DNA of 64,000 nucleotides. Origin: Candidatus Omnitrophota bacterium. Lineage in GTDB: Bacteria > Omnitrophota > Gorgyraeia > Gygaellales > Profunditerraquicolaceae. The notes under the pieces are model-generated. The model made no database searches. It was not told the origin of the DNA and saw only the letters and a program-made list of their open reading frames with translations. Made by a program: the position numbers and the translations under genes. Shown in pieces: positions 2,466 to 45,200 of this stretch (the stretch's first letter is position 1; the number at the start of each line of letters is the position of its first letter). The DNA is taken from positions 234,171 to 298,170 of the forward strand of contig JAKLGJ010000002.1 in NCBI GenBank assembly GCA_022710715.1, in the 5' to 3' direction.

Positions 2466-2506
2466 GGTATCCTCCTTGTTTTGTCTGTTATTTCTGTTTA
2501 TAGTCT

Positions 2507-4135: not shown

Positions 4136-4140
4136 AGGGC

Positions 4141-4392
4141 TCCCGCAAAATAAAAATCCGGATTGCTTTTCCTGATTTCGGCAACCCGGTTAGTCAAAAA
4201 GGGAAACAATTCCATGGAGAAACAAATAATGTTTTCCCTGACCCCGTGGCTTTCCCCCCTCGAGAGGGGCTTTTCGATCAAGAATTTTACTGCGTGTTAC
4301 AAGCAAAGTATACCTTATGCGCTGCGGTTTTTCAATGCGCAAGAACAAACTTTTGTATCTGTTAACGCAGGCGTAAAGCCGGCTGTGCCGGA
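4141..4392 (-). promoter_or_regulatory. conserved ~250-nt leader, copy 1. In the mRNA sense it contains the GC palindrome hairpin CCCCTC-TCGA-GAGGGG, then GGAAAGCCACGGGG, then ...TTGACTAACCGGGTTGCCGAAATCAGGAAAAGCAATCCGGATTTTT, then the SD.
   Basis: ~80-85% identical by eye to 6161-6400. Confidence 0.45.
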
Positions 4393-6154: not shown

Positions 6155-6160
6155 TTGGCC

Positions 6161-6400
6161 CCTTAAAAAGAAAAATCCGGATTGCTTTTCCTGATTTCGG
6201 CAACCCGGTCAGTCAATGAAAAGGGAAAATCAAATTGAGAAACAAAAGCAATTCCCCCGACCCCGTGGCTTTCCCCGCCGGAGCGGGGCTTTTCGATCAA
6301 GAATTCTGCTGCATTGTTCAGTCAAAGTATAGCTTACCGCGGGCGTATTTTCAAGGCAGAAAGGCCGACTTTTGTATCTGTTAACAAGCGGGTTAAATCG
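6161..6400 (-). promoter_or_regulatory. conserved leader, copy 2 (hairpin CCCCGC-CGGA-GCGGGG, GGAAAGCCACGGGG, GCGGGTTAAAT x2).
   Basis: Near-identical blocks with 4141-4390. Confidence 0.45.
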
Positions 6401-8374: not shown

Positions 8375-8410
8375 TATTTCCTCAAATTTAGATATATTTA
8401 GACAAGCTAG

Positions 8411-8439
8411 ATTATATAGCAATGCTTAAAATTTGTCAA
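8411..8439 (-). promoter_or_regulatory. consensus sigma70 promoter for the TonB_C-OEP gene (TTGACA - 17 nt - TATAAT on the minus strand).
   Basis: Plus-strand ATTATA 8411-8416 and TGTCAA 8434-8439. Confidence 0.6.
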
Positions 8440-8952: not shown

Positions 8953-9015
8953 TTTGGTGGAACTAAGTGCTTTTTTAAATAAATGTAAATTTATAAAAAA
9001 AGTACTTCTTATACG

Positions 9016-9092
9016 AAAAAGGCAAACCAAGAGAAATCTTGGGACGCAAAGCCACGGATCCTCGAGAGAGAAACTTTCAGGATAGCCGAGTT
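9016..9092 (+). ncRNA. candidate c-di-GMP-I (GEMM) riboswitch aptamer. GGCAAACC (9021-9028); P1 6-bp stem with GAAA tetraloop (9027-9042); GGGACGCAAAGCC (9041-9053); P2 (ACGGATCC ... GGATAGCCGAG, to ~9090).
   Basis: Same architecture and near-identical conserved blocks as the Vibrio Vc2 aptamer, as remembered: GGCAAA-CCAUUC-GAAA-GAGUGG-GACGCAAAGCC. Confidence 0.6.
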
Positions 9093-9120
9093 ACCGAAAT
9101 GAGTAGCTCGGCTTTCTTGT
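9084..9120 (+). terminator. intrinsic terminator / expression platform. AGCCGAG-16 nt-CTCGGCT hairpin followed by TTCTTGTTT. Its 5' arm is the 3' arm of riboswitch P2, so the two are mutually exclusive.
   Basis: Inverted repeat 9084-9090 / 9107-9113, then a U-rich tract. Confidence 0.55.
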
Positions 9121-9138
9121 TTAAACGAGGGTAAGCCA

Positions 9139-9237
9139 ATGTATGCCTGGCGAAAAACAATCTGGTTTAAAACAGTAGCCCTGACCATGGTCGGGGTATT
9201 TCTGTTTTCTGAAGTTACCTGGGCTGCCAGGTCAGAT
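9139..9237 (+). other. domain: N-terminal signal peptide / membrane anchor (MYAWRKTIWFKTVALTMVGVFLFSEVTWAARS).
   Basis: Hydrophobic core and AxA-like site. Confidence 0.6.
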
Positions 9238-24200: not shown

Positions 24201-27200
24201 TCATGGGAACTGGTCAGCGATTCCGCAATCCGCGACAACATCTCCGGAACCGTCTACAGCGCTTACCAGACCCGCAACATCCCGGTCTACAGGATCCACG
24301 GCGAATTCAACGCATAATATCGGCGGCGCCTTCTTCAGCGCAGCCGCGATGGCGCCTCTAAGCATGACGGTGGTGAATCCTGAAGCAATCACTAACGCAG
24401 GCAACGTAGGGATTGTCGGATTCATCACCATGATCGGCGCGTTCACCTTATCCATACTGTTGAGCGCGCATAAGGACAGCGTCACGGTGATCAGAGCCGG
24501 ATTGATCAGCCTGGCCGCAACCGGGGTTGTTGTGGCCGTGCTGATGTTCGGCAATATCGATCTTGCCGGGATCGCGAGCTACCTGGCGGATTCAGCCGTT
24601 TCCGTCATTTCCAGCCTGCCGGCTGTTCTGGGCGTGGTCGGTTTCGCCGGTAAACCGTCATTCGACAAGGAACTTGACGGCGGCAGATCGCAGAAGCTGT
24701 TCGCGAAGATGACCATTCTCGGGCAGAAGATATTCGAGGCGTTGCAAAAACTGTGGCGTTACGGCGCAGTGGTGGCTATGTTCGGCACCCAGGAAAGCTT
24801 CGATTTGAGAGAAGTTTCCGTGATCCCCGTGGAAGCGAGACGCCGGCAGGAGAACGAATTCGGCGACGGCGGAAGACACGGGAATACCCACAGCGACCCG
24901 TTACGCGCCGTGATCAATGATCCCAGCTTGATGGGCGTAAAGATCAGGGGGAGAGAAGATGATTACGCGAGGATCTTTGCTCTGAAAATCGACATGGCGC
25001 TGGATGCTTTGAAGAAAAACATCGCGCCCCGTACCGCGCTGGTGATCGGCCCCGGTTCTACTGTGGTGGAGCCGCAGACGCTGGCAGCCAGATTCCCGTC
25101 GCTGGCAGATATTTACATGGTAGAGCGTGCGCCTATGAATCTGTCGCTTCTGGGTAAGCAGTATCTCGAGGCATTCGGCGAGTCCACCGCGCGGATACAT
25201 CTTATATACGGAGATGTCCGTTCCTTGCCTTTCGCGGATGACTCGATCGACCTGGCAGTCGGATTCAAGGTTCTGGTCGGCGAAATTTTCAGGGAGGAAG
25301 ACGACCTGCGCTCCGCCTGGAAAGAAACGGAACGGGTTTTGAGCAGCGAGGGGACCGGCATTGTCTATCAGACCCGCTTCCCGGATTTCGAACAGAGAGC
25401 AACGTTCAAATATTTGCAGCTCACGCTTTCTTTAGGACCGGAGCAAGCGAGCTTTAAGCAGCGTATTGCTTACCGCGCGCAGCTGGATGCGCCTGAACTC
25501 AACAGCTGGGCCGGCGACCATATCGGCGATATCGTGGTCTGGACCAAGGCAGAGGACGGCGGCAGAAAACTGACCGACGATGAAGCGATCGCTATTGTCA
25601 GGCAAGCGTACGCCTCCAGAGGGATTTATTTCGAAAAATTAAGCGGCAATGACGCGCAGGAGATTCTCGCGGCAGCGGTTAAGCAGGCGCAGGCAAGAGC
25701 CGACACTATGGCGAATCCGCAGGAGCAGAGCGAATCGCTGCCGGGGCTGTACCGCCGGGCGAATCAGGCTTTGCTGGTCCTGGTGCCGCTCGGATTGATC
25801 GGCCTGGGCGGGGTGATGGCGAAGGATCAACTGCATTTCGCCGAAGAGGGCGATATCGCCAAAGATATCGTCAAAGCTATTTACGCCGTCAGCGCGATCA
25901 ACGACCAGATCAACGAATTCAATCCGCTCATCGCTTCTGCGGCAGTCACCGGTCATCACATCGAATTGGGGAAAAATCCCCGCTGGGAATCATATTCCTG
26001 GGATCTGGATCAGACCACTGATGTCCGGACCCGAGAAGAAATAGTGGTCAAGCTGGATAATAACCAGGCAGGCAATAAAATCGTGGTCCAGTTATATGAC
26101 ATCAACACCCTGGATGACGAAAGCCGGGGTCGTTCCAGCGCGATTGTATTGAACGAGACCGGGGTCCAGGAAGTCCGCGTGCCCATCGACAGTATCATGG
26201 GAGCCAATCGAACCATTATCCGCAGGATCGGCGTGCATGTGGGCCGCGAAGTCTGGGGTCAGGATAACAATCCTGCGACTGCCAGGATCACCGTGCTGGA
26301 CATTGATCTCGCCGGAGAGCGGCCGCTGCCCGGAACCGGCGCGCCTTCAGTCATCCCCGGGTTCGGGCTCTGGGAAGTGTTCGGCGCTTTGATTGCCGCA
26401 ACCGGCATCATTCATTTACGCAAAATTATCTTCACCAGCCCGCAGGAAGATATCGTCAGAACAACCTTAACTGAAGGAGCTGTAGATATCCGCGGGCCTC
26501 CGTCTTCCGACACCGAAACCGATCCGGATGGCGGTAAAGTCACCGCGCGTGACGTCGCAGCCAATGCCGTTATCTTCGGACTCGGGGCTGGAATAATTTC
26601 ACTGATCGTGTCTTTCTTCGGATTGCCTCTGATCGCAGGTTCAGGCGTAGTCGTCTTAGCCACTCTGGCCATAATCGCCGTGGCCTTCGGCGCTTACTGG
26701 TTATTCACCACCAGACTGAATTCCGAGACCACCCAGACCTTTAACCAGGCGTTGAATAAGGCCCTGGAAGCCAACGAAAAATATCAGAAGCTGGATTCGA
26801 AAGAACAATCCAGGATCCGCACTCTGGTCAGAAGAGCCAAAAACGCGCTCTTCATCAAAGATCAGCAGCTGGCTTTCTCCCCGGCAGCCAAATTTCTGTC
26901 CAATCGCGATATCAAAACCGGACGCCTCGCCGGTTACGCTGTTTCCGCAATCGATGCCGTGTTCCAGGTCGTATTCATGCTGGTGCTGTATACCTTCCTG
27001 CTCAAGCATTACCTGGTGCCTTCGGCCCAGGCGATCAACGCGTTTTCCTCCATGATTCCCGAGGATACGCTTGACGCCATGGTCAAAGATGCCATTCGCG
27101 ACCTCAAGGAAAGCCAGCAGCTTTCCCCGGCTATGCAGAAAGCGGTCACCGCCAAAGACATCCTCACCTTAAAAGTACTCTTCGATTACATGGATGAACA

Positions 27201-30200
27201 GATCGATCATTTCGGCGAGCTGACCGTCGAGAATAAACTGTATATCGTTCCGCTGGCTTATTTCGTAGGCGCCAAAGCGTTCTTCTCTCTGGTAACCCAG
27301 AGAATCGTGATCGCCATCGCTTCCGGCTATATCGCCGGTATCCTGCTGCCTCTGGCTATTCCCGCATCTATTCTGACTACGGAACTCTGGTCTACGATGC
27401 TTCCGCTGTCCATCAAATTTACCGTCACGCCGTATCTGATCCTGAACAGCTTTATCGTCATCTATCTATTGAGCCTGCAGCAGCTCTGGGATGCCAACCT
27501 GCCGTTGGTGCGCGCTTTTGAAGCCGGCAGGATCACCGGATTGAGAATGCTTGGCCTGGCCCTGATCAATTCCGCGATCATCCTGATCCCGGGCACAATT
27601 TCGATGATGCTGGTTTCCGCGGAAATCGAAGCCGCTTTAAAAATAAGCGCTCCGTTCCCGTTTCTCAGAGATGCCATGAAATGGATGGAAGAGATTATTT
27701 ACGGCGCCAACGGCAGGACCGGTCTTGGCCAGGCGATCCTGGTGAAGGTAGGCGATTTCCTGGGCATCCAGCTGGTGCCGACGGTCTATGATCCTCTTGC
27801 CGCGGCACTGGGCCGGCCGGATTACCAGACTACCGGAGTATTGATGAATCTGTATACCGGCCAGCAGGCTGCCCAGAAAGCCGGCGATCCGCTGAAAGTT
27901 TCGTTGCTCAACGCGCTTATCCGCGGCGTCGAATCCGGCGATATCAAATTCTCGATCGATAATCCGCTGATTCCCAGCGCCGCCGCCGCCGAGATCACCG
28001 ATGCGAATGTGCTGAAGACCGTAACCTTGCCCCAGACCATCGATGTGGCGGCTGCCGAGAAGTTCATTGCCAACTCCAAAGGCGAATACGGCCTGTATGC
28101 CAGCCATAACGGCGAGAAGGCGGCATATACCTATGATCAGGCGCTGGTGGTGATGACCTTTATCGCCAAGGGCGACGAAGCCAATGCCCGGGCATTGCTG
28201 GATATTTACGCGAATAAAATTCCGAAACACGCCAGCTCCCTGTATTACAACGGTTATTACGCCGACAGCCAGTCCTATGCCGTTCAGGAAGGCATCGTGC
28301 ATGTCGGACCGAACGCCTGGATGGCCCTGGCTATGGCCCAGTACGACACCCGTTTCAACAGCGATCGGTATACCGGAAACATCAAAGGGATTGCCGACGC
28401 GATCAAACTTTACCAGAGACCCAACGGCAGTATTTACGGGGGTCCCACTGTCAGTTGGGTCTCTACCGAACATAACCTGGACGCCTTCGTCCTGTATAAT
28501 TACCTGGCCACCACTTCCGGCGAGGCCAAGTATGTTGAAGCCCGCGACAAAGTCGAGAACTGGCTGCTTACCGAAGCTTACTCCAACGGTTCGTTCTTGA
28601 GAGGCCAGAACGACAATATATTCGCCACCGACACCCAGGCCTGGGGCGCTTCGATTCCTGAATTACCGCAGCAGGTCGATCGCCAGGCATTGCTGGCTTC
28701 CGCCGAGCAGAATGCTCAAGTGACCGTTACCTTCAACGGAAAACAGGTGACCGGATTCGATTACGACCGCAGCTCGCAGCAGGGTACGCCGGTGATGGTC
28801 ACTCCGGAATGGACCAGTGAAATGGTCATTGCCTACGCTATCAACGGCCAGCAGGCCAAGGCCGAAGCGACTTTGAAAGAACTGGCTAAACTGCAGCTGG
28901 CTAACGGCGGATTCCCCTATGCCACCCAGGCGGGCGCCGACACCGGCCACGGCTGGAAGACTCCCGGAACCGGCGGTTCCTTAGCCGGCACCACCTACGC
29001 GATCATGGCCCAGAAAGTATTCAATCCGTTCGACATTTCCGGCACGAGCGTTCCCGCTACTGCGCAGCCTTCTCCTGTGACGACTCCTGTGACGACTCCG
29101 GTGACGGTAACTCCGGTAATCACCGCGCCGGAAACTACCGCGCAGCCTGTTCCGTTCACCACTTTGCCGGTGCCCTTCGTCAACGGCACAATCAATGTTA
29201 CGACCAACTGGACGTTCGTCAATCAAACCGTCAACGGGACCGAGATCAGAGGGCCTCCGGCGTTCAACATTACCGCGAACCAGACTGCTACCAACGCCAC
29301 TTCTTTCGCGCAGGCCGTGTTTACCGACGCGCTGAACGTACATCCGAACGCATTAAGGATCGACCCGGCCGCCGTAGCCAATCTTACCGTTCCCGATGTC
29401 TACACCTTTGCCAACAGCAAGGACATGCTGGTCAGCTTCGACGCCGACCGTACCGACGCAAACACCACCTATATTTATTCCGTAACTCCCGTAGCCAAAG
29501 CGCAGGCCCTGGCGCTGCTGACCGAAAAAGCCAATGCCGCTGCTACTCCGGAAGAACGCCAGTCCTACGAAACCAGGATCGCAGCCTACAACCAGGATTA
29601 CGGCTATACCCTGACGCCGGTGGCCGAGAAATCCTCTTACTCCTCCCAGACTTTCTACAATCTGGACCAGGGCATGTATGTGCTGGAAGTCTGGAAAACC
29701 GGCGTGGATCTTACCGATAAAGACAGTGAAGTCGCTTCTCTGGAACGGGTCACCCAGCCGGTGCTGGTGGATGTGGTTATCGATACCGCCAACCGCTTCC
29801 CGGCCCTGACTACCCACGTGGGGTATCCGGCGGGCGACGGATTCGGCGGCGCCACCGTGGAGAAGATCCTTGAAGTCAACCCCGAGACCAACCTCAAGAC
29901 TACCCGCGACCTGTATACAGTCAGCAGCAACGCGGTGAAACTGAACTTCGATTTCGCCGGCATCAAGGACGGCACTAAGGCCGCAGCGTTGAAGAAAGAT
30001 ATCGCCGGGATGATCGTGCTGCGCACCGATACCGGCACCAGCCGCATCGAATCGTTCGCCGTGCCCAAGTCCGATGCCGCGCAGGTCTATCCTTTCGAAT
30101 TCGTGGATACCACCACAGAAACCGGGCATACCTATGAATATACCGCTTATGTCTACGGCAACAATTACACCAGCAGCGAGGAATCCGAGCCGGTGCTGGT

Positions 30201-33200
30201 CAAAGTGGGCAATCTGGTTGAGCCGATTTCCCAGGCGCCGACGCTGACCGTATACGGCACGGAAGGCAAGCTGCATGTGATGATCGAGTTGACCGAGTTC
30301 AAGGATAAGGTCGGCACCAGGTACAACGGCCCGCTGGTGGGCGCTTACGAAGTCAAGATTATCGATACGAAGACCGGCGTGGAAGCGTTCAGCGAGGTGA
30401 TCGGCGCCAATTACGACGCTTCCAAGCATAACGGCCTCTGGGACGAAGAGATCCGGCCACACCTGGCTCTGGACCTGGGCGCCGGCGATTACGATCTGAT
30501 GGTCAAAGCCTGGGAGCGCAATCCGCTGGAGTACAGCAATTTCAAGGGTTCCAGTCCGTGGGCAGTCAAGCATATTTCCCTTGAAGCCGAGAACGCCTGG
30601 CAGACCAGGATCTACGAGAATGAAGCTCCGTTCTTCACCCAGGAAACCAGGGATATGAAGCTCAAGGACAACACCCGCGATTTCTACGTCACCTGGGATG
30701 CTCCGATGGAAGCGGATTTCGACAATTATATTTTCCAGTTCTCCTTTGACCAGAAGTACTCCACCGACGCCGCTAAAACCTGGTACACCTTTACCCTGCC
30801 CAAGAGCCAGCAGGGCTTCCATGTCGCGGTCATGCCGGAAGACGTGAAGAACTACTTCACCCTGGCTAACGGCGTGTACAGCGGCAAGGTGGACTGGAGG
30901 ATCAAGAACGTCCGCGATACGGATTCCGTCAAGATCGGAGACATCTCCTCGGATTACGTCTTCATGAGCCGCAACCTGAATATTCGCGCCGAGGATGTGG
31001 ATGCGTTCTCGCGGGATATCGCCGCTCGCCAGCATTCTCTCCAGGACGTCGGGTATGTCTATAATTCCATCCCGCACACCCTGCTGGTGGAGAACCGCTT
31101 CAGCGAGACCGAGGACAACAAAACCTATCAGTATGCGCTTCAGCGTAATTACGAGATTTTGACCGGCAACAAGACCGAGCTGTTCAGCAGCGAGCTGTAT
31201 CGCATCGAAGGCAATAAAGAATGGACCTTCATCCACGGTCTGTACCCCCGCGAGAATAAAGAAGCGGTTTTCAACGGCAGGATGACTTTTAGAGAAGCCG
31301 CCACTATGGAAGGGATCAAGCTTCCGGGTTCCATATCTTCCGAATTCCGCGCAATCTATCCCGAAGAGACCGAGTTCAATTTCTACACCGAGACCATCCG
31401 CGGCATGGAGATGTACAAATTCTATCATCCGTCTTATTCCCGTCTGCCGGCTCTGGAATTCACCCGCGACGGCATCTCCGTCTACGACATCGCCACCCAG
31501 GAGAAAGCAGCTTACTACAAGACAACCAGCGACCTGGTATTCAACGAGCATCCCGTCGGAGTTATCCAGGGCGCCGATATGTCCACCGAGCTGATGGCCT
31601 TCCTGGAAGCCAAGGGCGTGCGTATCAACGCCGGCCGCAAAGATAATTTCAAGGCGGTCCTGGATCAGACCATCAGCCTGATGCCCAAGGCGATCATCTG
31701 GGAAAAGGCAGCCTCCAACGGCAAGACTTCGTATCTGATCTACGACAGCATTCATGACGAGCCGGCCATCGTCGTGGACGATAAAGTGTTCTTCACCCAG
31801 GTCCTCTGGAAGGGCATGATTGTGCAGTACGTGTTCAGTAAGGAATACCGCGATATCCCGCAGACCACCCCGGTGATCGCCGACGGCAGCATGAAGGTTA
31901 AGAGCGGGTCGGACTCTTTTGCGGTCAACGTGTGGGATCCGGCGACCAATCAGACTTCTCTGCTGATGCCGGAGACCGTGGTGGATACCTATGAAGTCCG
32001 CGACACTGCCAACAACATTCTCTTCACCGCCTTGCTCGAAGCCAACTCCCAGTTCGGCCGGGTGCTCGCCCAGCAGTCGAAAATGAAAGACGCCGCGGGC
32101 AATGAAGCAACCTATATGTACGTGGTGACCAAATTCTCTGAAAAGGATATCTACGAACCCCTGGAGTCGGTGTTGCTCAAATATAACGCCGGTAAACAGG
32201 TCTGGGAGAAGGTGACCGGGACTACCACCGAAGCCAAAGAATCTGCGCAGGCAGTCGCGCAGTATAATGACATGCCGGAATGGATGCAGCAGGAAGTGGT
32301 TAACGTTACCGCGTTCATCAGCCATACCCAGAAGCCGGCGAACCTGGTCAAGTCCGCCGTGGTAACCACGGAAGGCGAAGTGTACCATACCTGGGTGGTC
32401 GAGGGCGACGCCGAAGGCCGCATCGTGTTCATGGATCGCGGCGGCGATTTCACCTTCAACGCGGATTTCTTCGGCTACAGCAATACCCCGCTGCGCGGAT
32501 ACATCATCAATAAGGCCAGCGGTAAGATCTACGCTTTCGAGAACAAGGACGGCAAAGAATCAAAGATCCTGCTTAACGGCGCGGAGTATATGCTGGCTAA
32601 CGATGAAGATGACGATTTCATGCGCGTTATGTTCCAGGGCCTGGACGCCGCCGGCGCCAGAACCGACGCGCCGTTCTTCAGATGGTATCCGTCGTTCGAT
32701 CCCATCGGCGGAAGATACAATTACGAGCAGAGAGGGTATTTTACCATTACCGGCCAGTCCGCTACCTGGGTGCCGTTCGAGCAGACCGACGCCAGCTGGT
32801 TCGACAACAAATACGTGATCCAGGAAGCTAAAGTCTACAAGCTGGAGATGATGCCCGACAGCAACCAGGTGGAAAAGAGATATTCCCACAGCATCTTTGG
32901 TGACGCGCTGATCTCCAGCACCGCCCAGACCGCAGAACTCCAGGGCTTGGGCACGCTGGCTCGCACCGCTCCCAACGCCGGCGTCCTGGATAATCCCGTT
33001 TACCTGACCGCGCAGGAACAGGTCGAGCTTTCCGATCTGCTTGCCAACGGCTTCCCGGCCCGCAAATCGCCGGTCGAATATGCGAATGGAAACAAACTTG
33101 TACGGTATTATCCTCTGACTTTTGGTCGCACCGAGCAGATTGTGGAAAGCGTTAATGAATACGTCATTAACCTTAACTGGCAAGAAGATCCGCAAGGCGG

Positions 33201-36200
33201 ATATTACGCCAAAGCTGTGGTTCTTGATAAAAATGGTTTGGGGGTTAAGAAGGTAATTTCTACTCCATCAAACCAAGTGGTCTATGGGGAATTGGTGAAT
33301 AATACTATACGTGTAGCATACAATGTCGCAACGCATGAAGATTTAGACGGATATATTCATTCATATGCTCAAGCATATGGAGAGAATGGGGATGAATTGG
33401 CTTTACGTCAGAGGATCATTTATAAATTCCTTCCTATTTCGGGTGAGGATCAGACTGCTAATTTAAGCACTGTCGCAATCCCGATGCAACAATATTATTT
33501 GGCGCAGGATCAATTTGCGGATTCACTCATAGAAAAGAGTCCGGTTTCGGAAAGGGAAAGCCAAACCACAGTTAAAATATGGCAATATCGTTTAGAAGAT
33601 ACCTTTGGTATTATGCCGCGAGCTGTTTCTTACTCCAGCGAAGAAATCGAATTGGTCGAATTTGATCATAAACAGAAAGAGGTTGGGTTATACAATACAA
33701 CAACCGCGACAATAGAGACAATTCCGGTTAATCAAATATCGCCTTTTGACTATGCGCTGGTTTATAACGTCCAATCTTTGAACGCAGAAAAAGTTTCTCA
33801 TCAAGAAATCCGGTTGCCTAATAATGTGAAAGTTCAGGATATTTACGAATCCCAAATCGGCCGCGCGGTCAATAAGTTGCCTTGGACGTCCGGCACTGAA
33901 ACTATACAGTATAACCGCGATCTCCCCTACGAAGATCCGGTGATATCGTTTAATAGGGCCACCGGCCAGTGGACCAAGAAGTGGGATCGGAAGATTTACG
34001 ATCCTAGCAAAGAGGCGTACGCGGAATTCAAAACAACCGAACGTGAGCTGCAGGCCCCGGATAAAGTTGCCACTTGGACTCACACATTTGATGTGTACGG
34101 TAAGGAAAAACTTCATAAAGACGTAATTGGGGATGCGTCAAGAGAAGTCGTGGCCGGAATTAATTCTTTGCTGGGCAATGTGTGGCTATTGATGGCTTTG
34201 GCGGTGGGGATCGTAACATGGTTAAGTATTCTCTTGGGGGTTCCCCGCATAATCAGATGGATGAATGAGGGCAAGAAAAAGCAAGGTGTTCGGTCCGAGA
34301 TTGACTCGGCGGATATCGATTCAACGGATGCAGCAGCGGACCAGCGTTTAATTAATCGGGATATGATTCTTGAAGTGTTGGAATCATTCGTTAATAAAAA
34401 AGGTGAGATCAAGAATAACCTGATTATAATCGATGCCATGGAACGAGTTGGTGCTGTATTGCCGGCAGATTATAGCCTTGAAGATATCGAGAACTTGATG
34501 GGTTACGAAGCGCCGATTAAAGATTTGAAAGAGTGGATCACCCGCAATAGAAATGAGGAGTTGGCTGCTTTGTTGACAAAGGCCAATATTAGCGCCTTCG
34601 AATTTACCGTATTGACACTTGTCATTTATAGCATCGGTAAAGAATACAAATATGCGAATCCCCCGGTAATGTATTATCTTATTGATAAAGCAATCAGAAT
34701 GATTATTCAGGGCAAACGGAACGAGATAATTCCCGAAATCCGTTCTGATGTAGAAGCCATGAGAGATTTCTTGAACAGAAGCTATCCGCCTGTTCCTCAA
34801 GGCGGTATGAGCAAAGATTGGTTGCGTCGATATAGCAGTATTGATGAAAAAGGGCGAAAGAAGGAAGAATTGCGCGGCGGTTTGTATGAATCGTTCCTTA
34901 TGAGCGAGCGCAGCGGTTTGACTGTAGCGCAGAAGGCAACGTTGAGGAAAGATTTGGAAATTTTGCGCGCTCATGAAGCCGCGATGGATGATCTCGATCG
35001 AGAAATCGACCTGTTAAAACATCAGAAAGAAATTACTGCCGGGGAAAAAGATAAGGATAATCTAACCGTACAGATTGACAAGTTATCCGGTCAGCAGAAA
35101 GCGAACAAGGATATCAAGGCAGCCATAGAAGAGCAAATTAGGAATCAATTCTGGCTGAATCCCATTAAGAAATACTACGTTACATTTGAAGATCTCGAAG
35201 ATCGGTTGAATGGCTATAAAGAAGATTTTGATCTGATTGCTGAATGGGATGCGCTTGAAGGCAACAGTAAAGAAGACAAGAGAGACTATCTCATAGGGAA
35301 AGGATTGAATTTAAAGACTTATCCGGATGAAGTCGGAATCAGACAATTCTTAAAGAATATCTGGCCTGTTATTATTCCGGTTATTCCTTCGGTACTCGCG
35401 GTTACCTTTGTGCCATTGTTTGTGTCCATGCCTTGGGGGTTGCTAATTGCGCTTGGGGTTGCTTTAACTGGTTTAATACCTTTAATTAAAGGGGATTTGG
35501 GCTACAGCAAGAGCATGGGGCCGCTTTCTTTCGATCAAACCCGCCAGATAAGAAACACCTACATTGCGTTTACTTTGTTTACTGTCGGATACACCGTATG
35601 GAATTTTGTGTTACTTTCGTCATCTTATCCGGTTGTGGGGACGATTTTGTTGACTTTTAACCCCGCCTTAATGGTGACTACAATTATGATCTTTGGGTTG
35701 GTTTATTTCTTCTCTGTTTTGGCAATTTGGGCAATTATGCCGATCATTCTTACTCAATTTGCCTATGTGCAAGGAAAAATTGACGGGATTGGAGCGATTA
35801 GAGATTGGAAAGAAGCGTTGCAGCAAGATAATATTAATGCAGCTAAGAAGCGATTTACGAGTTTCTTGCCAAACCAGTTAAGAACGCGGTCTGACGACCT
35901 GTGGAATGTTTTTGTAGATACGTACATCAATAAGATGGGAGAATTTAATAAGATTAGAGCTGAAGATAGGGAGCTCTTAAAGAAGATCCTGAAAGCAGAA
36001 AAATTAACTGAAATAGAAGTCGCGCAGAAAAATAAGATGCTAATAGAAGGTTTGGGCGATAACGAGGCACATGATAGAATACGGCGATTTATTGGAGCCT
36101 GGTTTATTGAATCTCCAGTGTCTTTTATCTGGGACGAATGGCCCATGTTAACAGCGATTATTACTTGTTTTGACGAAGCAATTATTACGGAATTCAAAAC

Positions 36201-39200
36201 CCTCAATTCTTTGCAGAATGGAACCGTTCCCCTGAATTGGTTTATTAAAACTTATGGGCGGGATTGGGTGAATTTTGTCAATACCCTGCCAGAACCGGCC
36301 AGAGGAGTGCTGTTAAAGCATTATGAAGAGAATGTCAAAAAAGGCAAGTTGTATATTCGACTTGAAGGTGATTATATAGATGCAACGCTTGAGGAACAAA
36401 TTGTAAAGTGGGTTGGTCTCCACTTTATTCGTCCGGACAAAAGTCTTGCCGAAGCGAATGAGATGTACGCGGTGTATAAATTCTGGGCTATGGCGAGGTT
36501 CTTTGAAGGGAAGAGATATGAAGAATTAAACGAAGAAGACCGAGCCTACTTAAATGGCAAGATTAAAGAAAAATTGCAGATATTGCTCATATACGAAGCT
36601 TATGAATTCGCATCCTTTGTAAATAGAATGGCGTTAATACAAGCTTTGGCCCAATATCCTTTCACTGAGCTTTTCCTGGGATATGGGAAGTTGTATCAAA
36701 TCAAAGAAAGTTATATTGGGCAATCTTACGCAGAGATAGTGGCAAAAGGAAAGCAATTTAAAAAAGAGGTTCAAGAAAGAGATGAATTCTTAGAAGAAAT
36801 TAACTCCAGCTTGGGCGAATTTGGTCCGCATGCAGCGGTCAAACCAAACCGCATCATGAAGGGTAAGACTATTGGACAGAATGCCGGAACTGAATATGCC
36901 AGAGGCGATGTTTGGATTTTCTTTGATTCCAACGCTTCAATGAGATTTGAAGAACTCATAAGAATCCCTGCAGCTTTGGCTGAATTCAAGAGAAATCCCC
37001 GGGTTAAGCTGGTTCTTTTCGGAGAATACATTAATACCAAAGAATATTCCTGGATGGCTGGGTGTTTGGCGTTTGGCGAAGAAGCATGGACCCAGGTAAT
37101 GCAGCGCAGCCTGGATTCTTTTGGGGCTTGCGGATTTTATGGCCACAGTGCATTTATCAGGGCTGATGCAATGAAAGCCGCTGGCGGATTGTTAAGTTTC
37201 TACGCTTCTGAAGACTTGCTTTTAGCTATACGCTTATGGGGCAATGGTTCTTTAACCGCTCACAGAGAGTATATTTTGTTTGGTAAAGGAAGAGAAAGAG
37301 GGTATATCGCTTCGAATGTTCCGCTGGGAAGATGGTCGGAAGGGTCGTCAGAGCTGATTCTTGGTCGACAGGTGCAGCGTGCCCTGAAGGGAAATAATTT
37401 GCACATGGGGCAGAAGATGATGCTGATCTATGCTTTGTCTTTCTTCTCCAAGAAACCTTTGGTCATCGTTGCCAATAATTTATATCTATTCTTACTTATC
37501 TTCCTCGGTTTCAGTCCGTTTATTGGATTTCCGTTAGCATTAATGTTCGGAGTAATAGGAATACTTATTTCTCAAGCTATCAATACAACGGGATTGCTTT
37601 ATCTGATTGAGAATATGGGGGTGTGGAACGGAACTATTGAATTTTTGCATATGTTCCCCAAACTGTACACGTTCTTTGTTGCCGAAATCACGCCGTATGC
37701 CCAGAGATTTCTTAATGGCGCTATTAGTGGCGCCAGCGGTTTTGCTATGAGCTTACGTGGTTTGGATTTGGAATTCGTGAAATTCGATGATATCTGGGTT
37801 AACGCGACCACAACGCCTTTACGGCATACTGCTATTGCTACTATTATTTTGAGCAGCTTTTTGTTTATCGGTTCAGCAGTAAGTTTCCTTGCCCCTGTTC
37901 TTCCCGAGATACTTTTAATTACTCCTTTAATCCCGGCCATCACTTTACTGTCGATCATAGGTCTGGGAATCCTTCCTATTGTGGCTGTGGCAGTGTGGCA
38001 TAAATTGTTCCTCGGTCCCAAAGGCGTAGCGGTAAGATTGCAGATGACTTTGTCTATTCCGATGATGGCTTATGTTATCCTGGGCATCTGGTTCTGGGGT
38101 GGTGTAGGCACGAGTTTGGCTTTTGGATTCGGATGGCTGGCTTTATTTGCGACGTTATTCATTTATGGATTTGGTAGTTTTAGAGACAACAAAGTAATCA
38201 GCATGGGTGGCTTACTGCTATTCTTAGCAACCATTGCACTTACTACTTATTTTATCGCTCCCATATTCTTGCTTTTCTCGTTCTCCTTGTTTTACTTGAT
38301 CATGCCTTTTGACTGGTTCTTCATGCCGATACTTGCTCATCCAAGGATGCTGCATAATTTTCGCTATTGGAGAGCCAACGAACGGTATCTTAAGGAGATC
38401 CGGAATTTGGCGCGAGATGGGAAAGTGATTAAAGAAATGACCTCAATAATCATGGCGACCCAAGAATATGCGGAGCTTGCCCAAGAAGGAAAAATCATTG
38501 ATTTGTTTACGAAAGAACTCCCCAGGGTCCGTTCGTTAAAGGATGATTCGATCTGGCAATATCTGTCTGCGCAATCGCAGAAATATTTGGTTGCAATAAC
38601 CGGGAATCAAGAAAAAGAAATTCGCGCTAAATTCTTCTCAGAACTGTTGGCAATTGAAATTGAAAGCAAAGGAAAAACAGTGACCATCTTAGACCGCGAA
38701 ATCAACTTGAAAGGCAAGAAAGATACCATTGCCCAGATAGTTCAGGCGCGAGTAAAAGAGTTGTTGGAGAGAAACAAGGTGGAAACATTTGATGCCGCAT
38801 TGCCTGATGCTCAGGATGTCGAAGTTACTATGGAGGCCGAAAAAGGCAATATTCTTGACGTTATGATTCCTGCCGAGCTAACCCAAGGAATGGTTGCCGA
38901 TATCCAGGATGCCGTAAAAGAAGGCAGAATCAGCATTCATGGCAAGTCAGGCGATATCGAGACACCGGAGAATATTCTTACCGGGGTGGATATTAGCGTC
39001 AAAGATGACAACGACGGTGGAACTGTTTCGGCCATCTTTTATGGAATAGGGATGTTAGCCGAAGACATCATCAGCATTTATTTCTGGATGCCCTTGATTG
39101 CTGCAGCCATCGCGGGGGTAACTATATATGGGATTTTGCAGCTTTTGTTATATCCCGGCAGAAGAACAGAAACCTTATTTACTATTCAGAGTTTTAAGGA

Positions 39201-42200
39201 TTGGGGCATATGGTTTATAACTGGTCTGACCGTGGGGACTGTTACAGCACTGTTGAGATATGCTTTGCCAATGGGGTGGGGCATGGTGAACGCGGGCAGC
39301 ATATTTATTTTATCACTTGAACCCGGCATCGCTTGCGGGGTTGCGGGTATCCTTTTAGCTAGAGAGCTGAAGAAATATACCATTAATAAACCAGCTTCTT
39401 CTTTGCGCCATCAACTCCCCTATAAAGCTCTTTCTTTGCAGGGAGTTTTAGTTATGATGGGTGGATTTATTGGGTTAGTTTCTGGGACAATCTTTGAAGC
39501 GTTAATAAGCACGCATTTATGGACAGCCGATCCGCTCGATTTAACAATATTTACTGTCTTGCAGATTTTGTCGCCGATTCTGGGAGCGTTGTTTGGAGCC
39601 AAGATCAGCGGTTTATTGACCAGACCCCTTGCTCCTTCAGTCAACACGGCTACTTCTTCCCGTGAAAATGATAATGATGGAGGCAAAGCCCAGCTACGAA
39701 AAATTATAGCGACTATTCTTGCTGCTTGGAAACACCTTCAAGACACCGTGATCAGCACTTTCGGTGCATTGGTAACTACTCAGATGACACTGACGCATAT
39801 CAAGCAGAATCCAATGTACAGCGATCTGGATGTCGACGTGATAGTTCGCAAGATCGAAGTCGGACAGTTGGAATTGAGAGGCGAGGACCTTGATATCGTG
39901 GATGAAAATGATCAGCCGATAGCCGCGCTAGACAGGAATATCGCGCATGAATATGGATTGGCGCATAGGGCTGCTAATGCTATGGTAGCGATAGTCGAAA
40001 ACGGAAAGCTCGAATTTGTACTGCAACGCAGAGCTCATCATATCAAGAGGTTCCCGTTGCACTTATCGCTCTACGGAGGGCATGTGACAAGCGGTGCGAC
40101 GTACCAGCAAACGATCATTCACGAGATACAGGAAGAATTATTCCGGGGACAGGTGGCGGGCTTGAAGGGTACATTCAAGGAGATCGAGCTTAAAGACCGT
40201 TATTCCAAGGATCCGGAGAACAGGAACAATGAATTTCGCAGGCTTTATGTTTATGTGACAGCGGATGCTCAAGAAATCGGCATTATTCGTGCATACGCCC
40301 AGGAGCTCGATGAGAAGAAAAAGACCCTTACTGCAGAAGAATTTAAGCAATGGCTGGAAGAGGAAGCTCAAAAAGAGGGATATGGCGAAATCTGGAGCAT
40401 GCTTTTTGTTGACCTGCAGACACTTCTTACTGCCCCAGAATCGGTTGAAGAGAACCAGCCGGCAGCTAATAAATATATTGACCTTAAAGCAACAGATAAG
40501 TTGGCAGGATTTGAGCAACAGGAAGCAGGGCAGTATGCTCATGCGCAATTTACTCCCGATCTGCTTGATCCGTTGTTGAGGAATGGAGATGTTCTCGCGG
40601 TTTTAAAACAACTTGAGCCTGGTATTCCTGGGGCCGTTTCTGCGGTAGGAACAACGTTTGAATCAAAAGCGAAACCCGGCACGGTTCCCATGGAAATTCA
40701 TTTTAAAGTTGATTTGAAAAAGCTCCCGCCTGGAACTTACGATGCGCTAGAGATAGTCTGGGGCAACAAAAAACGCACCATTACCTTGCCGCAATCTATT
40801 GAAATCAAAGCGAACGTTGAGGAAGCCAAACAAGAAGCACAACCTGATAAGCAGGCTCCTCCTGAGAATGTCGCCGAGCCCATTGTTAATGAACAGACTT
40901 CAAGAGATCATTCAAAATCAGGCAGCATGGAAGGTAACGACGGCGGCGAGATCAGGACCGATAAGACCGAGATCAGGATGATCGAGCAGTGGGAAAAGAG
41001 ATTTGATGCCGAGACGGATGAAGATGTTCTGCGCACATCCGAGCCTAGATTGCGCTATGATCTCACGGCGTATCCCAAGATCGCGCAATTTGTTCCCGTT
41101 ACTCCCGGGAGAATATTGGAAGTGGGATCGGCCAGCGGGCGTTGGTTGTTACGGTTCGCCGGGCTGCATAAAGATTATGAGGCGTTTGGCCTGGATGTCT
41201 CCCGGAAATTATCCCAGGTTGCCAGAAGAGGCGCTTTGTTAAGAGAATTTCTCAATGTGGATATCGTCAAAGCCGATGCGTTGAATATTCCTTATAAAGA
41301 CGATGTTTTCGAGGCAACCACATGCTGCGGATTGATTGAACATTTCAAGCGCGAAGAGCAGCTAAAGATTGTCCGGGAAATGGTCCGGGTAACCCAGCCC
41401 GGCGGAGTGATTATCGTCGCCACGCCGAATTATTATTGCCCGTCCCTGATCGTTTCCATGCTCATAAGCGGCCTGGACTGGAGAAATGTCGAAAAACGCG
41501 AAGGCTGGAAGAAATGGACGTTCGGTTATGAACAGCCGCAAAAGCCCGAGGTTCTAATCGGCATATTGAAAGAGCTCGGATTGAAGGATATCGAAGCCGA
41601 TGGTTGGCTGCCGTGGTACGGGCTCGAGGGAGTGCGCAAATGGCATGAAGACACGGGCGCCGTTACATTCCCGTGGTATGCGCCTTTCTTGAAGCGTTTT
41701 GCGCAGGTATTAGATCTCGCGACGCCTTTCCTGGATACGATCTCGCATAACAGATTTTCTGCCCGGTTTGGATATGAGATCGTGATTAAGGCGACTAAGG
41801 ATGTACAAGACGGCGGCACGGCCGGAAAAATCGACATCGTTTCCCGCCTGATCGCGGCCTGGAGAACGCTGGTGGATGATTTTGAAAGCACCTTCGGCGC
41901 AGTAATGATGATGTTCGGCCAGCAGAGTGTCGTTCGGGTTCCTTCCTGGAGCGATGTGATAGACGGCGGCATGACGGTTGAAGACATCCGGATGCTGGAA
42001 GCGGCTCTGCGGATTGCGGAAAAGAATCGCAGCGCCGAGAATAAGCATGCCGTGGGCGCGGTCATATTCGACTCGAACGGACAACCGGTAGTGACCGCTA
42101 CCCGTGAGATGATCGCGGACGGCATCTATCAGCACGCTGATCGTCAGGCTATTCTGGAGGCGGATAAATTAGGGATCAAGGATTTCTCAACATACACCAT

Positions 42201-45200
42201 GGTGCTGACTGCCGAACCGTGCCAAACCTGCGCGCATTGGATCGCCCGCCGTAACTTCAAGAAGGCTATTATCGGTACCCTGGATACCAACATGCTGGAT
42301 ATTTTCGGCGCAGGGGTAATGATCCTGCGGGAAGCCGGCATTGAGGTGGCGGTTGCTCAAGGCGAGTTGCAGCGCGAGAGCAAAGCTTTGTTTACCGAAG
42401 ACCGCACGGTGGCTCAAGAGCAGAAGGACAATATGGCGTTGAGCCCGAGAGAACTTGAAACGCTTATTGCCGCGATGCTGGAATATCGCGCTAACGGCAT
42501 CTATCCGCTTTCGCCGGAAGTGGACGCTTTGATCAACAAAGCGCTGCACGCGGATTCGAATTTCATCCTCGGCCAGATCCAGGCTGCGCGCCGCGAGAAT
42601 AATATCGTCCGGTTCGAATATTTAACGAAACGCTTAGGCTGGTTGATGAACCCCCTGAATGCGCTCTATGCTTTTGACGCCGATCTCGAGAAAACCGAAG
42701 AAATAGAGCACCTAATTTTGAGACAGCGGATCCGCGGCGCCGGCCCGGACATGGCTGTTGCCATGGTTGTAGGTTCGATTGCTGCGCGGCAGGCGTTCAA
42801 AACAGCTTTACTCAACGGGAACTATTTTGCTCCGGGACACGTTTTCGAACTGGCTAACTTGGGCAAGCCGGGAGAAGAAGGGATTAATGACGGCGGCAAG
42901 CTGAACGAGGAAGAGTATAGAGATGGTTTCCGGTCCCTGGTCGGCCTTACTGCGGAGCAGATTGAGCAGAGACTGCATTCCGGACGGGTGAAATTTGATT
43001 CTAAGACACTTGAACCGATCGATTTTGCCGGAACGTCGGTTATCTTCTTCCTGGAAGACGCGCAACTGGTGGCTCAACTGCAGAAGAAAGCGCAGCAGTT
43101 CAAGGACGCACTGCGAGACGCCGGCCTGGACGATAAGTTCGCCCTGGTCAGTTTCGACTCGTTCCATGTCACCACATTCGATCTGGTCTGTGTCGAGGAT
43201 ATCAAGAAGAAAGACGGCCAGCGGGATGACGCTTTATACGGCCAGGTGTTCCCGGCAGTCAAAGCCGCGGCCGGCGCATTCATGAGCCGTGAGCCGCTTA
43301 AGGATATCAAAGCCCAGGTGACCGGTATTTCGATGTTCGCGCCTATCGTGTTGAAGCTGGCCGTGCAGATCGGCGATGCGGATCAGGCGGAACTGATTGA
43401 TTACCGGATGAGGCTGAATCAGGAACTCACCGGCATTCCCGGCTATCCTCGCAGCGCCGAGTGGAACCCGGGATACTCCGCGCATATCACCTTCGGTTAT
43501 ACCGTCAACCCGATGAACGAGCGGGAGATCGAGAAGTTTATCGCTCTTCTGAAGAAATTCAACGCGGAGTTCGAGCCGATCGCATTCGTGATGAATAAAG
43601 GCCGGGTGATGGATTTCTCGGATATGGACCATTTCTTTGATGGCGGGGATGCGACGAAAACCAGAAGCGCTTCCCGGCTGGTCGCGGCCTGGAGAACGCT
43701 CTGGGATACGTTCGACAGGGTCCTTTTCGGCGCGCTGGTGATGACCTTCGGCCAGCAGACCCGCATGCAGGATTGGAATATGATCAGCATGATCGGCAGT
43801 TACAGGACTTCCGGTCAATTCGCAACCCGAACCGGCGAGTATTCGCAGATCCAGGATATGCTGGAGCATAGTGTGATCGCGCGCGGGCCTCCTGCTGCCA
43901 GCGCCTTTTCCTATTCATTCGCATATTCAAATCCCGCGAACATATTTACCCGCTATTCTACCGGCGAATCCCTTCCTTATGACGGTCGCTCGCTGCCTTT
44001 ACGGCCTGACGCGAACGTCGATGATTTCACCTTTACCCATATACCTCTAATTACCATAAAGCAGGCTCCGACTTCCTCTACCGTGGCGGAGATGATTTCG
44101 GGGCCTGCTGGTAATTTGAGGGATCTGATGGACGGCGGCATTGCCCGGCGCATCGCGCAATTGCGCCAGGATTGGCATTTACCGTTCACCGACCAGGAGT
44201 TGCAGGCGCTTGACGCCCGTTATGCGCGGTTTACTTCCGCATCGCCGATATCCGCAGCGGAGCACGCAGCTGCACAGGTTTCCCGCCACCAGCGGACCAT
44301 TGCTCCCTTTGAAGGCGTAACTTTTACCGGCACAGGTTGGCATTCAGGCAAACAGATATCGATGACGCTTAAGCCCGCTCCCGCAGGGACCGGGATCGTA
44401 TTCGTACGTACCGATCTGCCGGGTCGTCCGCAGGTCAGGGTTATCCCGGAGAACGGCAAACAGATCTTCAAGACCGTGGCTCTGGAAGAGAACGATGTGC
44501 GCGTGCTCACCGCAGAGCATTTGCTCGCCGGCCTGGCCAGTCTGGGCATCGACAATGCTTTCATCGAGCTTGATTCAGAAGAAGTCCCGATCATGGACGG
44601 CAGCGCAATAAGCTACAGCTTGCTGGAGCTGCGCGCGCACGAGCTTATCCGCGAATTGGATGCGGACAGATCGATTGTTCCCGGTCTCGCTTCTCCGGTT
44701 ATCTACTCCAAGGAGTTCGATAACGGAGCGGTAGTCGCTCTGCCGTCGCAGGAACCGGGTTTGAAGCTTACCTATATAATCGACTTCGGTCCGCAAAACG
44801 AAATCGGCGGACAGGCGATCAGCCTGACCATCACGCCGGAGATTTTCTGGAATTATATGGCATTCGCCCGCACCTTTGTGGTGGAGAATCCGGAGATCGA
44901 CGAGCTGCGCAGATTCGGTTTCCTGCGCGGAGCAAAGCATAATACCACCGCGATCTTCGTGCCCGAGCAGAAGGTTCGGGGAGAGAAGAGGTTTGACCGG
45001 ACAGATGCGCCGGTGCTGCATAAACTGCTCGATCTGTACGGCGATCTGCAGGTGCTGAACAATCGTCTCGAAGGCGTGCATGTCATCGCCATTGAAGCCG
45101 GACACACCGATCATCTCAATTTTGTGAAGAAGCTGGATAGAACGCTGCGCGCAGAGGAATCCCGGCCGTTTACCGCCGAAGATGTCGCGCGGGTCAGCGA

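Follow-up and report, generated by a model that had tools for sequence, protein, structure and literature searches.

The locus

The DNA studied here (the window) is a stretch of 64,000 nucleotides (nt) from a contig of a Candidatus Omnitrophota bacterium (JAKLGJ010000002.1, positions 234,171 to 298,170 of the forward strand), and its dominant feature is the 5' part of a single giant gene. A stop-free frame runs on the forward strand from position 9103 to the window end at 64000 (18,299 codons); the gene as a whole measures about 163 kb and encodes a non-repetitive protein of about 54,000 amino acids (aa) with many transmembrane (TM) segments. Inside this frame lies a tract of lower GC content, hereafter the island, which encodes a membrane glycan synthase homologous to the fungal FKS1 proteins, and we lean towards the view that the island replaced the corresponding part of the gene by recombination with a related organism. 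The domains detected by Pfam in the open reading frame (ORF) include peptidase C39, methyltransferases, NUDIX, deaminases, LpxC, formyltransferase, PPDK, kinase, PGI and SIS. The features on which the argument rests are given below in window coordinates, GC3 being the GC content of third codon positions and RSCU the relative synonymous codon usage.

9139-64000 (+): 5' part of the giant ORF from its likely start codon (stop-free frame, identity of four assemblies, N-terminal translation)
27964-29073 (+): (alpha/alpha)6 toroid domain, GH76-like (AlphaFold2 model, Foldseek, profile against PDB), in the high-GC3 left flank
31282-34356 (+): conserved soluble block spanning the left breakpoint (frame aa 7394-8418)
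33058-33088 (+): left compositional breakpoint (2-log-likelihood support interval), inside the conserved motif PVEYANGNKLVRYY
33073-40917 (+): AT-rich codon-usage island, GC 0.44, GC3 0.448 (partition, RSCU, codon families)
34147-34242 (+): single TM segment (hydropathy scan)
35320-38382 (+): FKS1-like (GT48) membrane glycan synthase module (Pfam, family profile, AlphaFold2 with Foldseek)
35347-35739 (+): N-terminal TM bundle of the synthase (hydropathy)
36859-37509 (+): cytoplasmic glycosyltransferase domain of the synthase, Pfam core (PF02364)
37459-38271 (+): C-terminal TM bundle of the synthase (hydropathy)
39070-39597 (+): further TM cluster (hydropathy), with no homologue detectable among the best 150 of 251 synthase relatives, with which the whole ORF was compared
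39979-40287 (+): NUDIX domain (Pfam PF00293, E 5.6e-5 / 5.7e-6)
40909-41383 (+): right compositional transition, poorly resolved (about 470 nt), beginning some 65 codons ahead of the methyltransferase domain and reaching into it
41113-41406 (+): S-adenosylmethionine-dependent methyltransferase domain at the right edge (Pfam PF13649, E 1.4e-15)
58963-60867 (+): second, weaker low-GC3 patch in the same ORF (GC3 0.51)

The locus is present in four assemblies, namely an ENA MEGAHIT k141 contig of 914 kb, to which the window corresponds exactly, an ENA SPAdes NODE of 591 kb, a JGI contig and a Logan contig, and the four are 100% identical over 22 kb of it. One of the source runs is a member of a set of wastewater samples from the United States. 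Public gene calls give the giant protein 54,154 or 54,149 aa, with starts at window positions 9817 or 9832; the gap of 5 aa is wholly a matter of start-codon choice, the two codons lying 15 nt apart. The JGI contig (Ga0116154_10000041) stops inside the giant gene at about window position 29,867, close to a change point of GC3 at 29,743 (from 0.678 to 0.760), and this closeness may be a coincidence or may mark a site of strain variation.

A compositional break within one reading frame

The computed GC content follows very closely the drop that a preliminary description of the sequence had placed at 33,180-40,900. In windows of 1 kb it amounts to 0.54-0.57 between 24 and 33 kb, to 0.40-0.47 between 33 and 41 kb and to 0.52-0.59 from 41 kb on, so that the profile across 30-45 kb is anything but flat, and the reading frame is kept through the island, as had also been described, within the single stop-free frame 9103-64000. 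Most of the drop is due to the third codon position, where GC3 is 0.73-0.76 immediately before the island and 0.36-0.52 within it. Taken as a whole, GC goes from about 0.56 in the flanks to 0.44 in the island, and GC3 from 0.71-0.76 to 0.45. The optimal partition of GC3 gives 0.760 for 29,743-33,072, 0.448 for 33,073-40,917 (2,615 codons) and 0.673 for 40,918-58,962; binary segmentation puts the island at 33,076-41,343.

The island deviates from both flanks in codon usage as well. The RSCU values of the left and right flanks correlate at r=0.91, whereas the island correlates with the flanks at only r=0.21-0.24. The usage of the flanks is shared with the neighbouring GC3-rich genes (g659, g671 and a gene of 2,320 aa; r=0.71-0.92), and that of the island is closer to low-GC relatives (0.48-0.57) and to the other low-GC3 genes of the locus (0.44-0.57). 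The fraction of GC-ending codons is lower within the island in all 17 of the 17 synonymous families, and at four-fold sites the base frequencies pass from A.07, C.45, G.33, T.15 in the flanks to A.20, C.22, G.26, T.32 in the island. Such a uniform shift over the 17 families and the four-fold sites agrees with a different mutational background and not with selection for particular codons. The differences at the first and second codon positions (0.06-0.11 and 0.03-0.05, respectively) scale with that at the third, as expected for a sequence equilibrated in a lower-GC genome.

TM content was considered as a cause of the dip and is ruled out: GC3 is lowest (0.36) in the soluble start of the island and amounts to 0.62-0.69 in a TM cluster at 24.4-27.6 kb. 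The island is one patch in a compositionally mosaic locus, the largest low-GC3 patch of the locus and not the sole one, the second being the weaker patch listed above. The first ~15 kb of the giant gene have a GC3 of about 0.57-0.59, as against 0.67-0.76 further on, and the neighbouring genes range from 0.38 to 0.69, with several at 0.38-0.48. Further low-GC3 patches in the giant ORF were noted at 22753-24297 (0.485) and 9103-10287 (0.458). Cysteine is unevenly spread along the frame: the left flank (24298-33072; 2,925 codons) has none, the island has 4 among its 2,615 codons, and the 6,015 codons that follow have 24. Long antisense ORFs, e.g. that at 29,353-32,388, are without Pfam matches and were treated as shadow ORFs of GC3-rich coding sequence.

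The edges of the island and the conserved domain order

At the left edge GC3 falls from 0.78-0.85 to 0.28-0.45 within about 80 codons. The breakpoint lies amid an ungapped conserved stretch, PVEYANGNKLVRYY...NLNWQEDPQGGYYAKAVVLDKNGLGVK, which aligns in BLASTP to two homologous proteins, P0041 and P0021; the soluble block around it is homologous to residues 3525-4585 of P0041 and to P0021 from aa 7728. P0041 is a complete protein of 7,886 aa encoded on a contig with flat low GC, and the order of its domains, i.e. toroid, soluble block of ~1,000 aa, synthase and methyltransferase, is the same as in the giant ORF. Because of this identical order, the adjacency of the four domains is, judging by the sequences compared, ancestral. 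The methyltransferase that follows the synthase in P0041 (residues 6131-6228) is weakly similar to its counterpart here (25% identity, E 2e-6 in BLASTP).

The synthase supermodule occupies about aa 8130-9755 of the frame and the island aa 7991-10605, and neither edge of the island is a module edge. The distance between synthase and methyltransferase is about 365 aa in P0041 versus 914 aa in the giant ORF, and a stretch of about aa 9760-10600 that holds the further TM cluster and the NUDIX domain (38.4-40.9 kb) is without counterpart among the 150 best relatives. This sub-part may have been gained at some time, with nothing tying the gain to the compositional edges. In the closest low-GC relatives (L009, L016 and P0009) some 450 aa separate the synthase from a downstream domain that resembles frame aa 12880-12971 (window 47740-48015) and that in the giant ORF lies about 3,100 aa further downstream. 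This shift implies that large blocks (TM cluster, NUDIX, methyltransferase, deaminase, LpxC, formyltransferase) differ between lineages.

The FKS1-like synthase and the toroid domain

The preliminary description had assigned the catalytic region of the island, with its TM bundle, to family GT2. Pfam and hydropathy bear out a glycosyltransferase between TM clusters; the family is a different one, the module being an FKS1/GT48 homologue. For the single sequence the Pfam match is marginal, PF02364 scoring 39.1 bits against a cut-off of 37.2 in the ORF (E 3.6e-10) and 38.5 bits in the module alone, and a phmmer search with the synthase sequence matched only BcsA (E 2e-5). A profile built from 34 family members and compared with PDB finds FKS2/FKS1 at E 1.8e-100 (340 bits) and BcsA at E 8e-13. 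The AlphaFold2 model of the synthase is of good quality (predicted local distance difference test, pLDDT, 82; predicted TM-score, pTM, 0.87), and its top 13 Foldseek matches are all FKS1/2, with E-values down to 5.5e-19 and query TM-scores (TMq) of 0.41-0.55, as against 0.29 for BcsA. The GT2 models of Pfam remain below their cut-offs on the module (PF00535 with 16.7 versus 23.3 bits, PF13506 with 21.5 versus 21.7).

Across 34 homologues of the synthase, residues K516, D536 and E631-D632 reach a conservation of 90% or more. The motifs GK..Q, D.N and S-E-D are conserved, and the canonical DxD is replaced by D-S-N; FKS1, too, departs from the canonical DxD according to a review of the FKS enzymes. 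FDSN and SEDLLLA stand opposite DaNQD in the alignment with FKS2, and opposite FDAD and TED in that with BcsA. As to the motifs of GT2, SED aligns with TED and GRW with RGRW, and the Q of QxxRW is absent. A PilZ domain (PF07238) was searched for with Pfam and has no match anywhere in the ORF within the window. From the sequence we infer that the synthase is catalytically competent and that it is processive, making a beta-glucan-like polymer from a uridine diphosphate (UDP)-sugar and exporting it.

An exhaustive search of a representative library with the module gave homologues in 251 cluster representatives, nearly all of them long proteins or fragments of such proteins. Relatives of the synthase core occur in metagenome-assembled genomes (MAGs) labelled Candidatus Omnitrophota and, in some cases, 'uncultured Planctomycetia' or 'Elusimicrobia'. 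The scan for loci was made with a trimmed core alignment of five synthase sequences and returned only two loci among the JGI contigs.

The (alpha/alpha)-toroid hydrolase-like domain proposed at 28-29 kb is modelled as a confident barrel at 27,964-29,073 (pLDDT 89.5). Its profile finds GH76 mannanases in PDB (E 1e-6), and several glycosidase and epimerase families are closest in Foldseek, with BcsZ at rank 44 (TMq 0.50); as modelled, the toroid is GH76-like and not GH8/BcsZ-like. Toroid and synthase are linked in P0007, P0008, P0010, P0037, P0041, P0049, P0115 and L014, possibly also in P0074, and in reversed order in P0034. Because this linkage recurs in about ten giant-protein fragments, the two form a conserved pair. 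Thus the pairing of synthase and hydrolase of BcsA/BcsZ type that had been suggested stands as a pairing and as an analogy only, its members belonging to other families (FKS and GH76-like). Stand-alone homologues of the toroid (P0151-P0208) are Omnitrophota proteins of ~640 aa, many with a c-di-GMP (cyclic di-GMP)-binding PilZ domain, and some have a GH76 (PF03663) or GH127 (PF07944) Pfam match on the (alpha/alpha)6 domain. The PilZ fusions provide a second link of the synthase-toroid pair to c-di-GMP, besides the riboswitch described below.

The TM segments and the remaining enzyme domain noticed earlier in the island were recovered: the TM helix at 34.17 kb lies at 34,147-34,242, hydropathy places the TM clusters at 35.35-35.74, 37.46-38.27 and 39.07-39.60 kb, and the domain described as similar to isopentenyl-diphosphate isomerase (IDI) matches NUDIX (PF00293).

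The leader and the start of the giant gene

Two elements precede the giant gene.

9012-9099 (+): aptamer of a c-di-GMP-I-GGC riboswitch, lying in the gene's leader (Rfam RF03167, E 5.5e-15, 71.6 bits where the gathering score is 59)
9084-9122 (+): terminator-like hairpin followed by a U-tract (folding free energy, dG, -25.6 kcal/mol; z -4.1), the 3' strand of the aptamer forming its 5' arm

The riboswitch covers model positions 1-80 of 80 and ends 40 nt upstream of the ATG at 9139. The hairpin would serve as the expression platform and, because it carries a U-tract and reuses the 3' strand of the aptamer, ligand-dependent antitermination is suggested, with the riboswitch probably acting as an ON switch. 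The true start of the giant gene is likely the ATG at 9139, which has a GAGGG ribosome-binding site. The N-terminus translated from this codon, MYAWRKTIWFKTVALTMVGVFLFSEVTWA, looks like a signal peptide and is followed by a Ser-rich low-complexity stretch or linker, and because of this resemblance the public starts at 9817 and 9832 are probably too far downstream. With a start at 9139 the giant protein would be ~226 aa longer, roughly 54,380 aa.

Two genes upstream, 2507-4135 and 4754-6154, are low-GC3 paralogues (35% identity, E 1e-44) without Pfam matches. Their leaders, 4100-4380 and 6119-6399 (-), have 281 nt each and are 86% identical, and one of them shows a weak c-di-GMP-I-like match (25.8 bits, E 0.006); the N-termini of their products (MEKQxNRTIWR...) resemble that of the giant protein (RKTIW). 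In a related MAG a canonical c-di-GMP-I riboswitch (61.6 bits) lies at 20363-20459 (+) of locus L011, just 3' of the end of another giant ORF, so that riboswitches of the c-di-GMP-I type recur in these loci. No paper linking riboswitches to the giant genes of Omnitrophota was found.

The upstream neighbours at 6407-8422 (-) and 531-2510 (-) encode a TolC-like outer-membrane protein fused to a TonB C-terminal domain and an MgtE_N/FliG_M-like repeat protein, and a peptidase C39 domain lies near the N-terminus of the giant protein (frame aa 592-712). Together, the two neighbours and the C39 domain hint at an export context similar to type I secretion.

Origin of the island

We favour, with limited conviction, the explanation that the island arose by homologous replacement of a tract through recombination with a lower-GC relative among the Omnitrophota. 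An edge of about 30 nt in a soluble conserved domain, with all codon families affected beyond it, suggests two DNA histories joined by recombination. Since the architecture is unchanged, replacement by a homologue is indicated and not insertion. Unrelated genes nearby have the same codon style as the flanks, which makes import of the island more likely than import of the flanks. Of the module of foreign origin that the preliminary description had envisaged, the separate compositional history is therefore upheld by the uniform synonymous shift and the narrow breakpoint, for which it is difficult to account without recombination, and the foreign origin is plausible as recombinational replacement; the gain of a cassette is contradicted at the left junction.

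Under this explanation some 7.8-8.3 kb would have given way, in frame and at homologous positions, to the matching stretch of a giant-gene homologue from a donor lineage of roughly 43-46% GC at equilibrium. The left crossover would have fallen inside the conserved motif, leaving the domain architecture as it was, so that nothing but the ancestry of the sequence changed. The tract comprises the C-terminal half of the soluble block, the membrane anchor, the FKS1/GT48-type synthase, the second TM bundle and the Nudix domain. The synthase itself, with its TM bundle, its GT-A domain carrying the conserved K, D and E-D and its presumed channel-forming TM bundle, may polymerise a UDP-sugar into a beta-glucan-like polymer and thread this polymer through the membrane, and it would work alongside the GH76-like toroid encoded 2,000 codons upstream, the whole gene standing behind the c-di-GMP-type riboswitch.

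Relatedness was compared on both sides of the left edge, and the phylogenetic signal is in the same direction, though weak. Among proteins that hold both domains, the one nearest to the window by its toroid, which lies in the flank, is P0041 (284 of 300 bootstraps); by its FKS core, which lies in the island, P0041 is never the nearest (0 of 300), and L014, P0037 or P0008 takes its place. When the window is compared with P0041 and P0021, the sites common to only two of the three number 98/37/73 to the left of the edge and 41/40/87 to its right (p=3e-5 by chi-square). As for the island protein, its closest relatives, L008, L009, L016 and P0002, have 46-57% identity over the module and 68-74% in the core, and sit in low-GC contigs (GC 0.32-0.36).

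A number of considerations weigh against recombination. The nine-taxon distance comparison of toroid and core rests on near-saturated p-distances, the family is incongruent elsewhere too (P0049 pairs with P0115 for the toroid and with P0041 for FKS), and paralogy could contribute to the incongruence between flank and island. The three-taxon counts reflect branch lengths only, and faster evolution of the window lineage inside the island gives a similar pattern. The search gave no donor or near-identical source, the best relatives being ~50% identical in protein; a protein search with the entire island (2,600 aa) was without hits, probably because so long a query exceeds what the word index can handle. 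The right edge is diffuse, GC3 is uneven inside the island, reaching 0.60-0.62 over the Nudix core, and the resident-genome background for the comparison of composition amounts to ~73 kb. Amino-acid composition is little changed, with K/(K+R) the same and only I/(I+V) raised in the island. Third positions as different as these place heavy demands on the mechanism of recombination. Finally, in L012, another high-GC Omnitrophota locus, GC3 goes from 0.695 to 0.550 around the FKS module, which could point to a systematic cause rather than to a one-off transfer.

The step in L012, which has the same direction as that in the window and is weaker, also speaks for an alternative in which the tract is native and has been held at lower GC by a local substitution regime (less GC-biased gene conversion or recombination) or by selection for slower translation of the membrane-synthase region; we consider this alternative unlikely. 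The mild shift in amino-acid composition, the lack of a donor and the compositional heterogeneity of the whole locus would all agree with it. However, an edge of 30 nt amid a soluble conserved domain is unlike a gradient of selection or mutation, and L015, another relative of ~0.52 GC, is flat. Soluble and TM parts of the island are equally AT-rich, whereas the TM cluster outside is GC3-rich, the shift is uniform over all codon families, and a difference in expression level is no help, as it is equal for all parts of one ORF.

The polarity of the exchange might also be the reverse, with the island a remnant of an ancestral low-GC gene and the GC3-rich flanks, and most of the locus, imported or converted later. 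A low GC (0.32-0.44) and a low GC3 characterise the loci of most homologues retrieved, L012 and L015 at ~0.51-0.52 GC being the sole exceptions, and low GC is thus probably ancestral for the family. On the other hand, the codon usage of the flanks is common to unrelated neighbours (r up to 0.92), so that a GC3 of ~0.7 looks like the resident style, and P0041, the nearest relative of the toroid of the window, is itself low in GC. We regard this polarity as improbable.

Still more doubtful, in our estimate, is the gain of a domain cassette proposed in the preliminary description, in which a foreign block was inserted in frame, giving a longer gene and new domain adjacencies. Its composition is atypical, the shuffling of modules is common in this protein family, and the sub-part of about aa 9760-10600 that has no counterpart in the 150 relatives is also absent from P0041 between synthase and methyltransferase. 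The left edge, however, is inside a conserved ungapped block, the domains that adjoin there are ancestral neighbours, and the edges of the island do not agree with those of the synthase supermodule. Nor were signatures of insertion found: the flanking direct repeats are only short chance repeats, no tRNAs flank the island, no integrase, transposase or other mobile-element gene was matched in a frame that is open throughout, and similarity of the island to phages or plasmids does not go beyond a weak NUDIX match. No paralogue of the island exists elsewhere in the ORF, which excludes a duplicated segment. Relatives lacking the segment or having its flanks joined were not seen, the distant relatives being collinear through the left edge.

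Least probable of all is a contig chimera, to which two co-occurring Omnitrophota populations of different GC would each have contributed part of a homologous giant gene: the sequence is metagenome-derived, a joint switch of composition and relatedness would fit such a join, the JGI contig stops inside the gene at ~29,867, and junction queries of 300 aa (protein database) and 600 aa (GTDB species representatives and JGI contigs) retrieved no independent copy, yet assembly error is unlikely because the four assemblies are identical over 22 kb and the MEGAHIT and SPAdes gene products differ in length only by the start call, both joins are in frame and at homologous positions, and the shared exact k-mer of 55-141 nt that a join requires is implausible given the third-position differences and, if real, would itself imply recent exchange between the two populations.

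Comparison with known systems

Giant genes of Omnitrophota have been described, among them a 'multi-enzyme metabolic cluster' class with an N-terminal peptidase C39 (bioRxiv 10.1101/2023.11.21.568195; 10.64898/2026.06.07.730766). The protein studied here resembles these 'multi-enzyme' giants in its ~54,000 non-repetitive residues, its many TM segments, its C39, methyltransferase, NUDIX, LpxC, formyltransferase, PPDK, PGI and SIS domains and its source of wastewater or digester type. Searched by term, the 2026 preprint (10.64898/2026.06.07.730766) gave no match to 'recombination', 'mosaic' or 'horizontal', and its sole 'glucan' is in the name of a lectin/glucanase Pfam family; the 2023 preprint (10.1101/2023.11.21.568195) gave none to 'glucan synthase', 'glycosyltransferase' or 'horizontal', and a library search found 'riboswitch' in neither. 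Thus neither the mosaic composition nor the riboswitch was found mentioned in the two, nor was the bacterial FKS1/GT48 homologue with its 251 cluster representatives, which are almost always in very long proteins. For the 163-kb gene the riboswitch suggests a testable signal for when it is transcribed.

The synthase has its closest known counterpart in the beta-1,3-glucan synthases FKS1 and FKS2 of fungi (GT48; PDB 7XE4, 8JZN, 9WZV). Like them, it has a glycosyltransferase domain between two TM bundles and the motifs GK..Q, D.N and S-E-D without a canonical DxD, the profile match extends over FKS residues ~643-1529, and the fold agrees over the whole module. Unlike them, it is bacterial, has ~1,000 residues and is part of a giant polyprotein for which a Rho1 partner is not expected; over the first ~640 residues of FKS no matches were found except for a marginal stretch of 14.7 bits, and the identity in structural alignment is only 13-14%. 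If giant genes do carry a bacterial clade of such synthases, as considered below, the GT48 family, usually treated as eukaryotic, would have a sizeable prokaryotic branch, which bears on the origin of the beta-1,3-glucan synthases of fungi and plants. The homologue, compact at roughly 1,000 residues, is related to a target of antifungal drugs and offers a lead on how the eukaryotic enzyme arose.

The cellulose synthase pair BcsA and BcsZ shares with the locus a processive membrane synthase, as predicted for the module here, the TED-like (SED) and GRW motifs, an (alpha/alpha)6 partner and the theme of c-di-GMP. The match to BcsA, however, is far weaker than that to FKS (E 8e-13 versus 1.8e-100; TMq 0.29 versus 0.55), the island has no PilZ domain, the toroid is nearer to GH76 and other clans, and the two domains are in one polypeptide and not in separate genes of an operon. 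With classical genomic islands the tract has in common the atypical GC content and codon usage and a sharp edge; it differs from them in having no integrase, tRNA or flanking repeat and no separate gene, and in an order of genes and domains that matches relatives.

A sharply bounded tract with a history of its own within one ORF would bear on the building and upkeep of giant genes, as it would show that they change by internal recombination between lineages besides domain accretion. It is conceivable, though we would not rate it as likely, that giant genes evolve in part by the exchange of internal multi-kb tracts between lineages, the synthase region being a recurrent site, and that they carry a bacterial FKS/GT48 clade fixed beside a GH76-like toroid and here placed under a c-di-GMP-type riboswitch. 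The left junction is a concrete site at which recombination in giant genes can be tested.

The nearest parallel to the event proposed here is provided by the penicillin-binding-protein genes of Streptococcus and Neisseria, which are mosaics produced by interspecies homologous recombination. In both cases a gene that is native apart from an in-frame block of other composition and ancestry keeps its architecture and has the breakpoints of the block in conserved coding sequence. The giant gene differs in its length of ~163 kb, in the ~8 kb of its block, in a much larger synonymous divergence between block and flanks, and in having neither a known donor nor a known selective agent. Overall, the kind of event is known from mosaic genes, and the setting is new.

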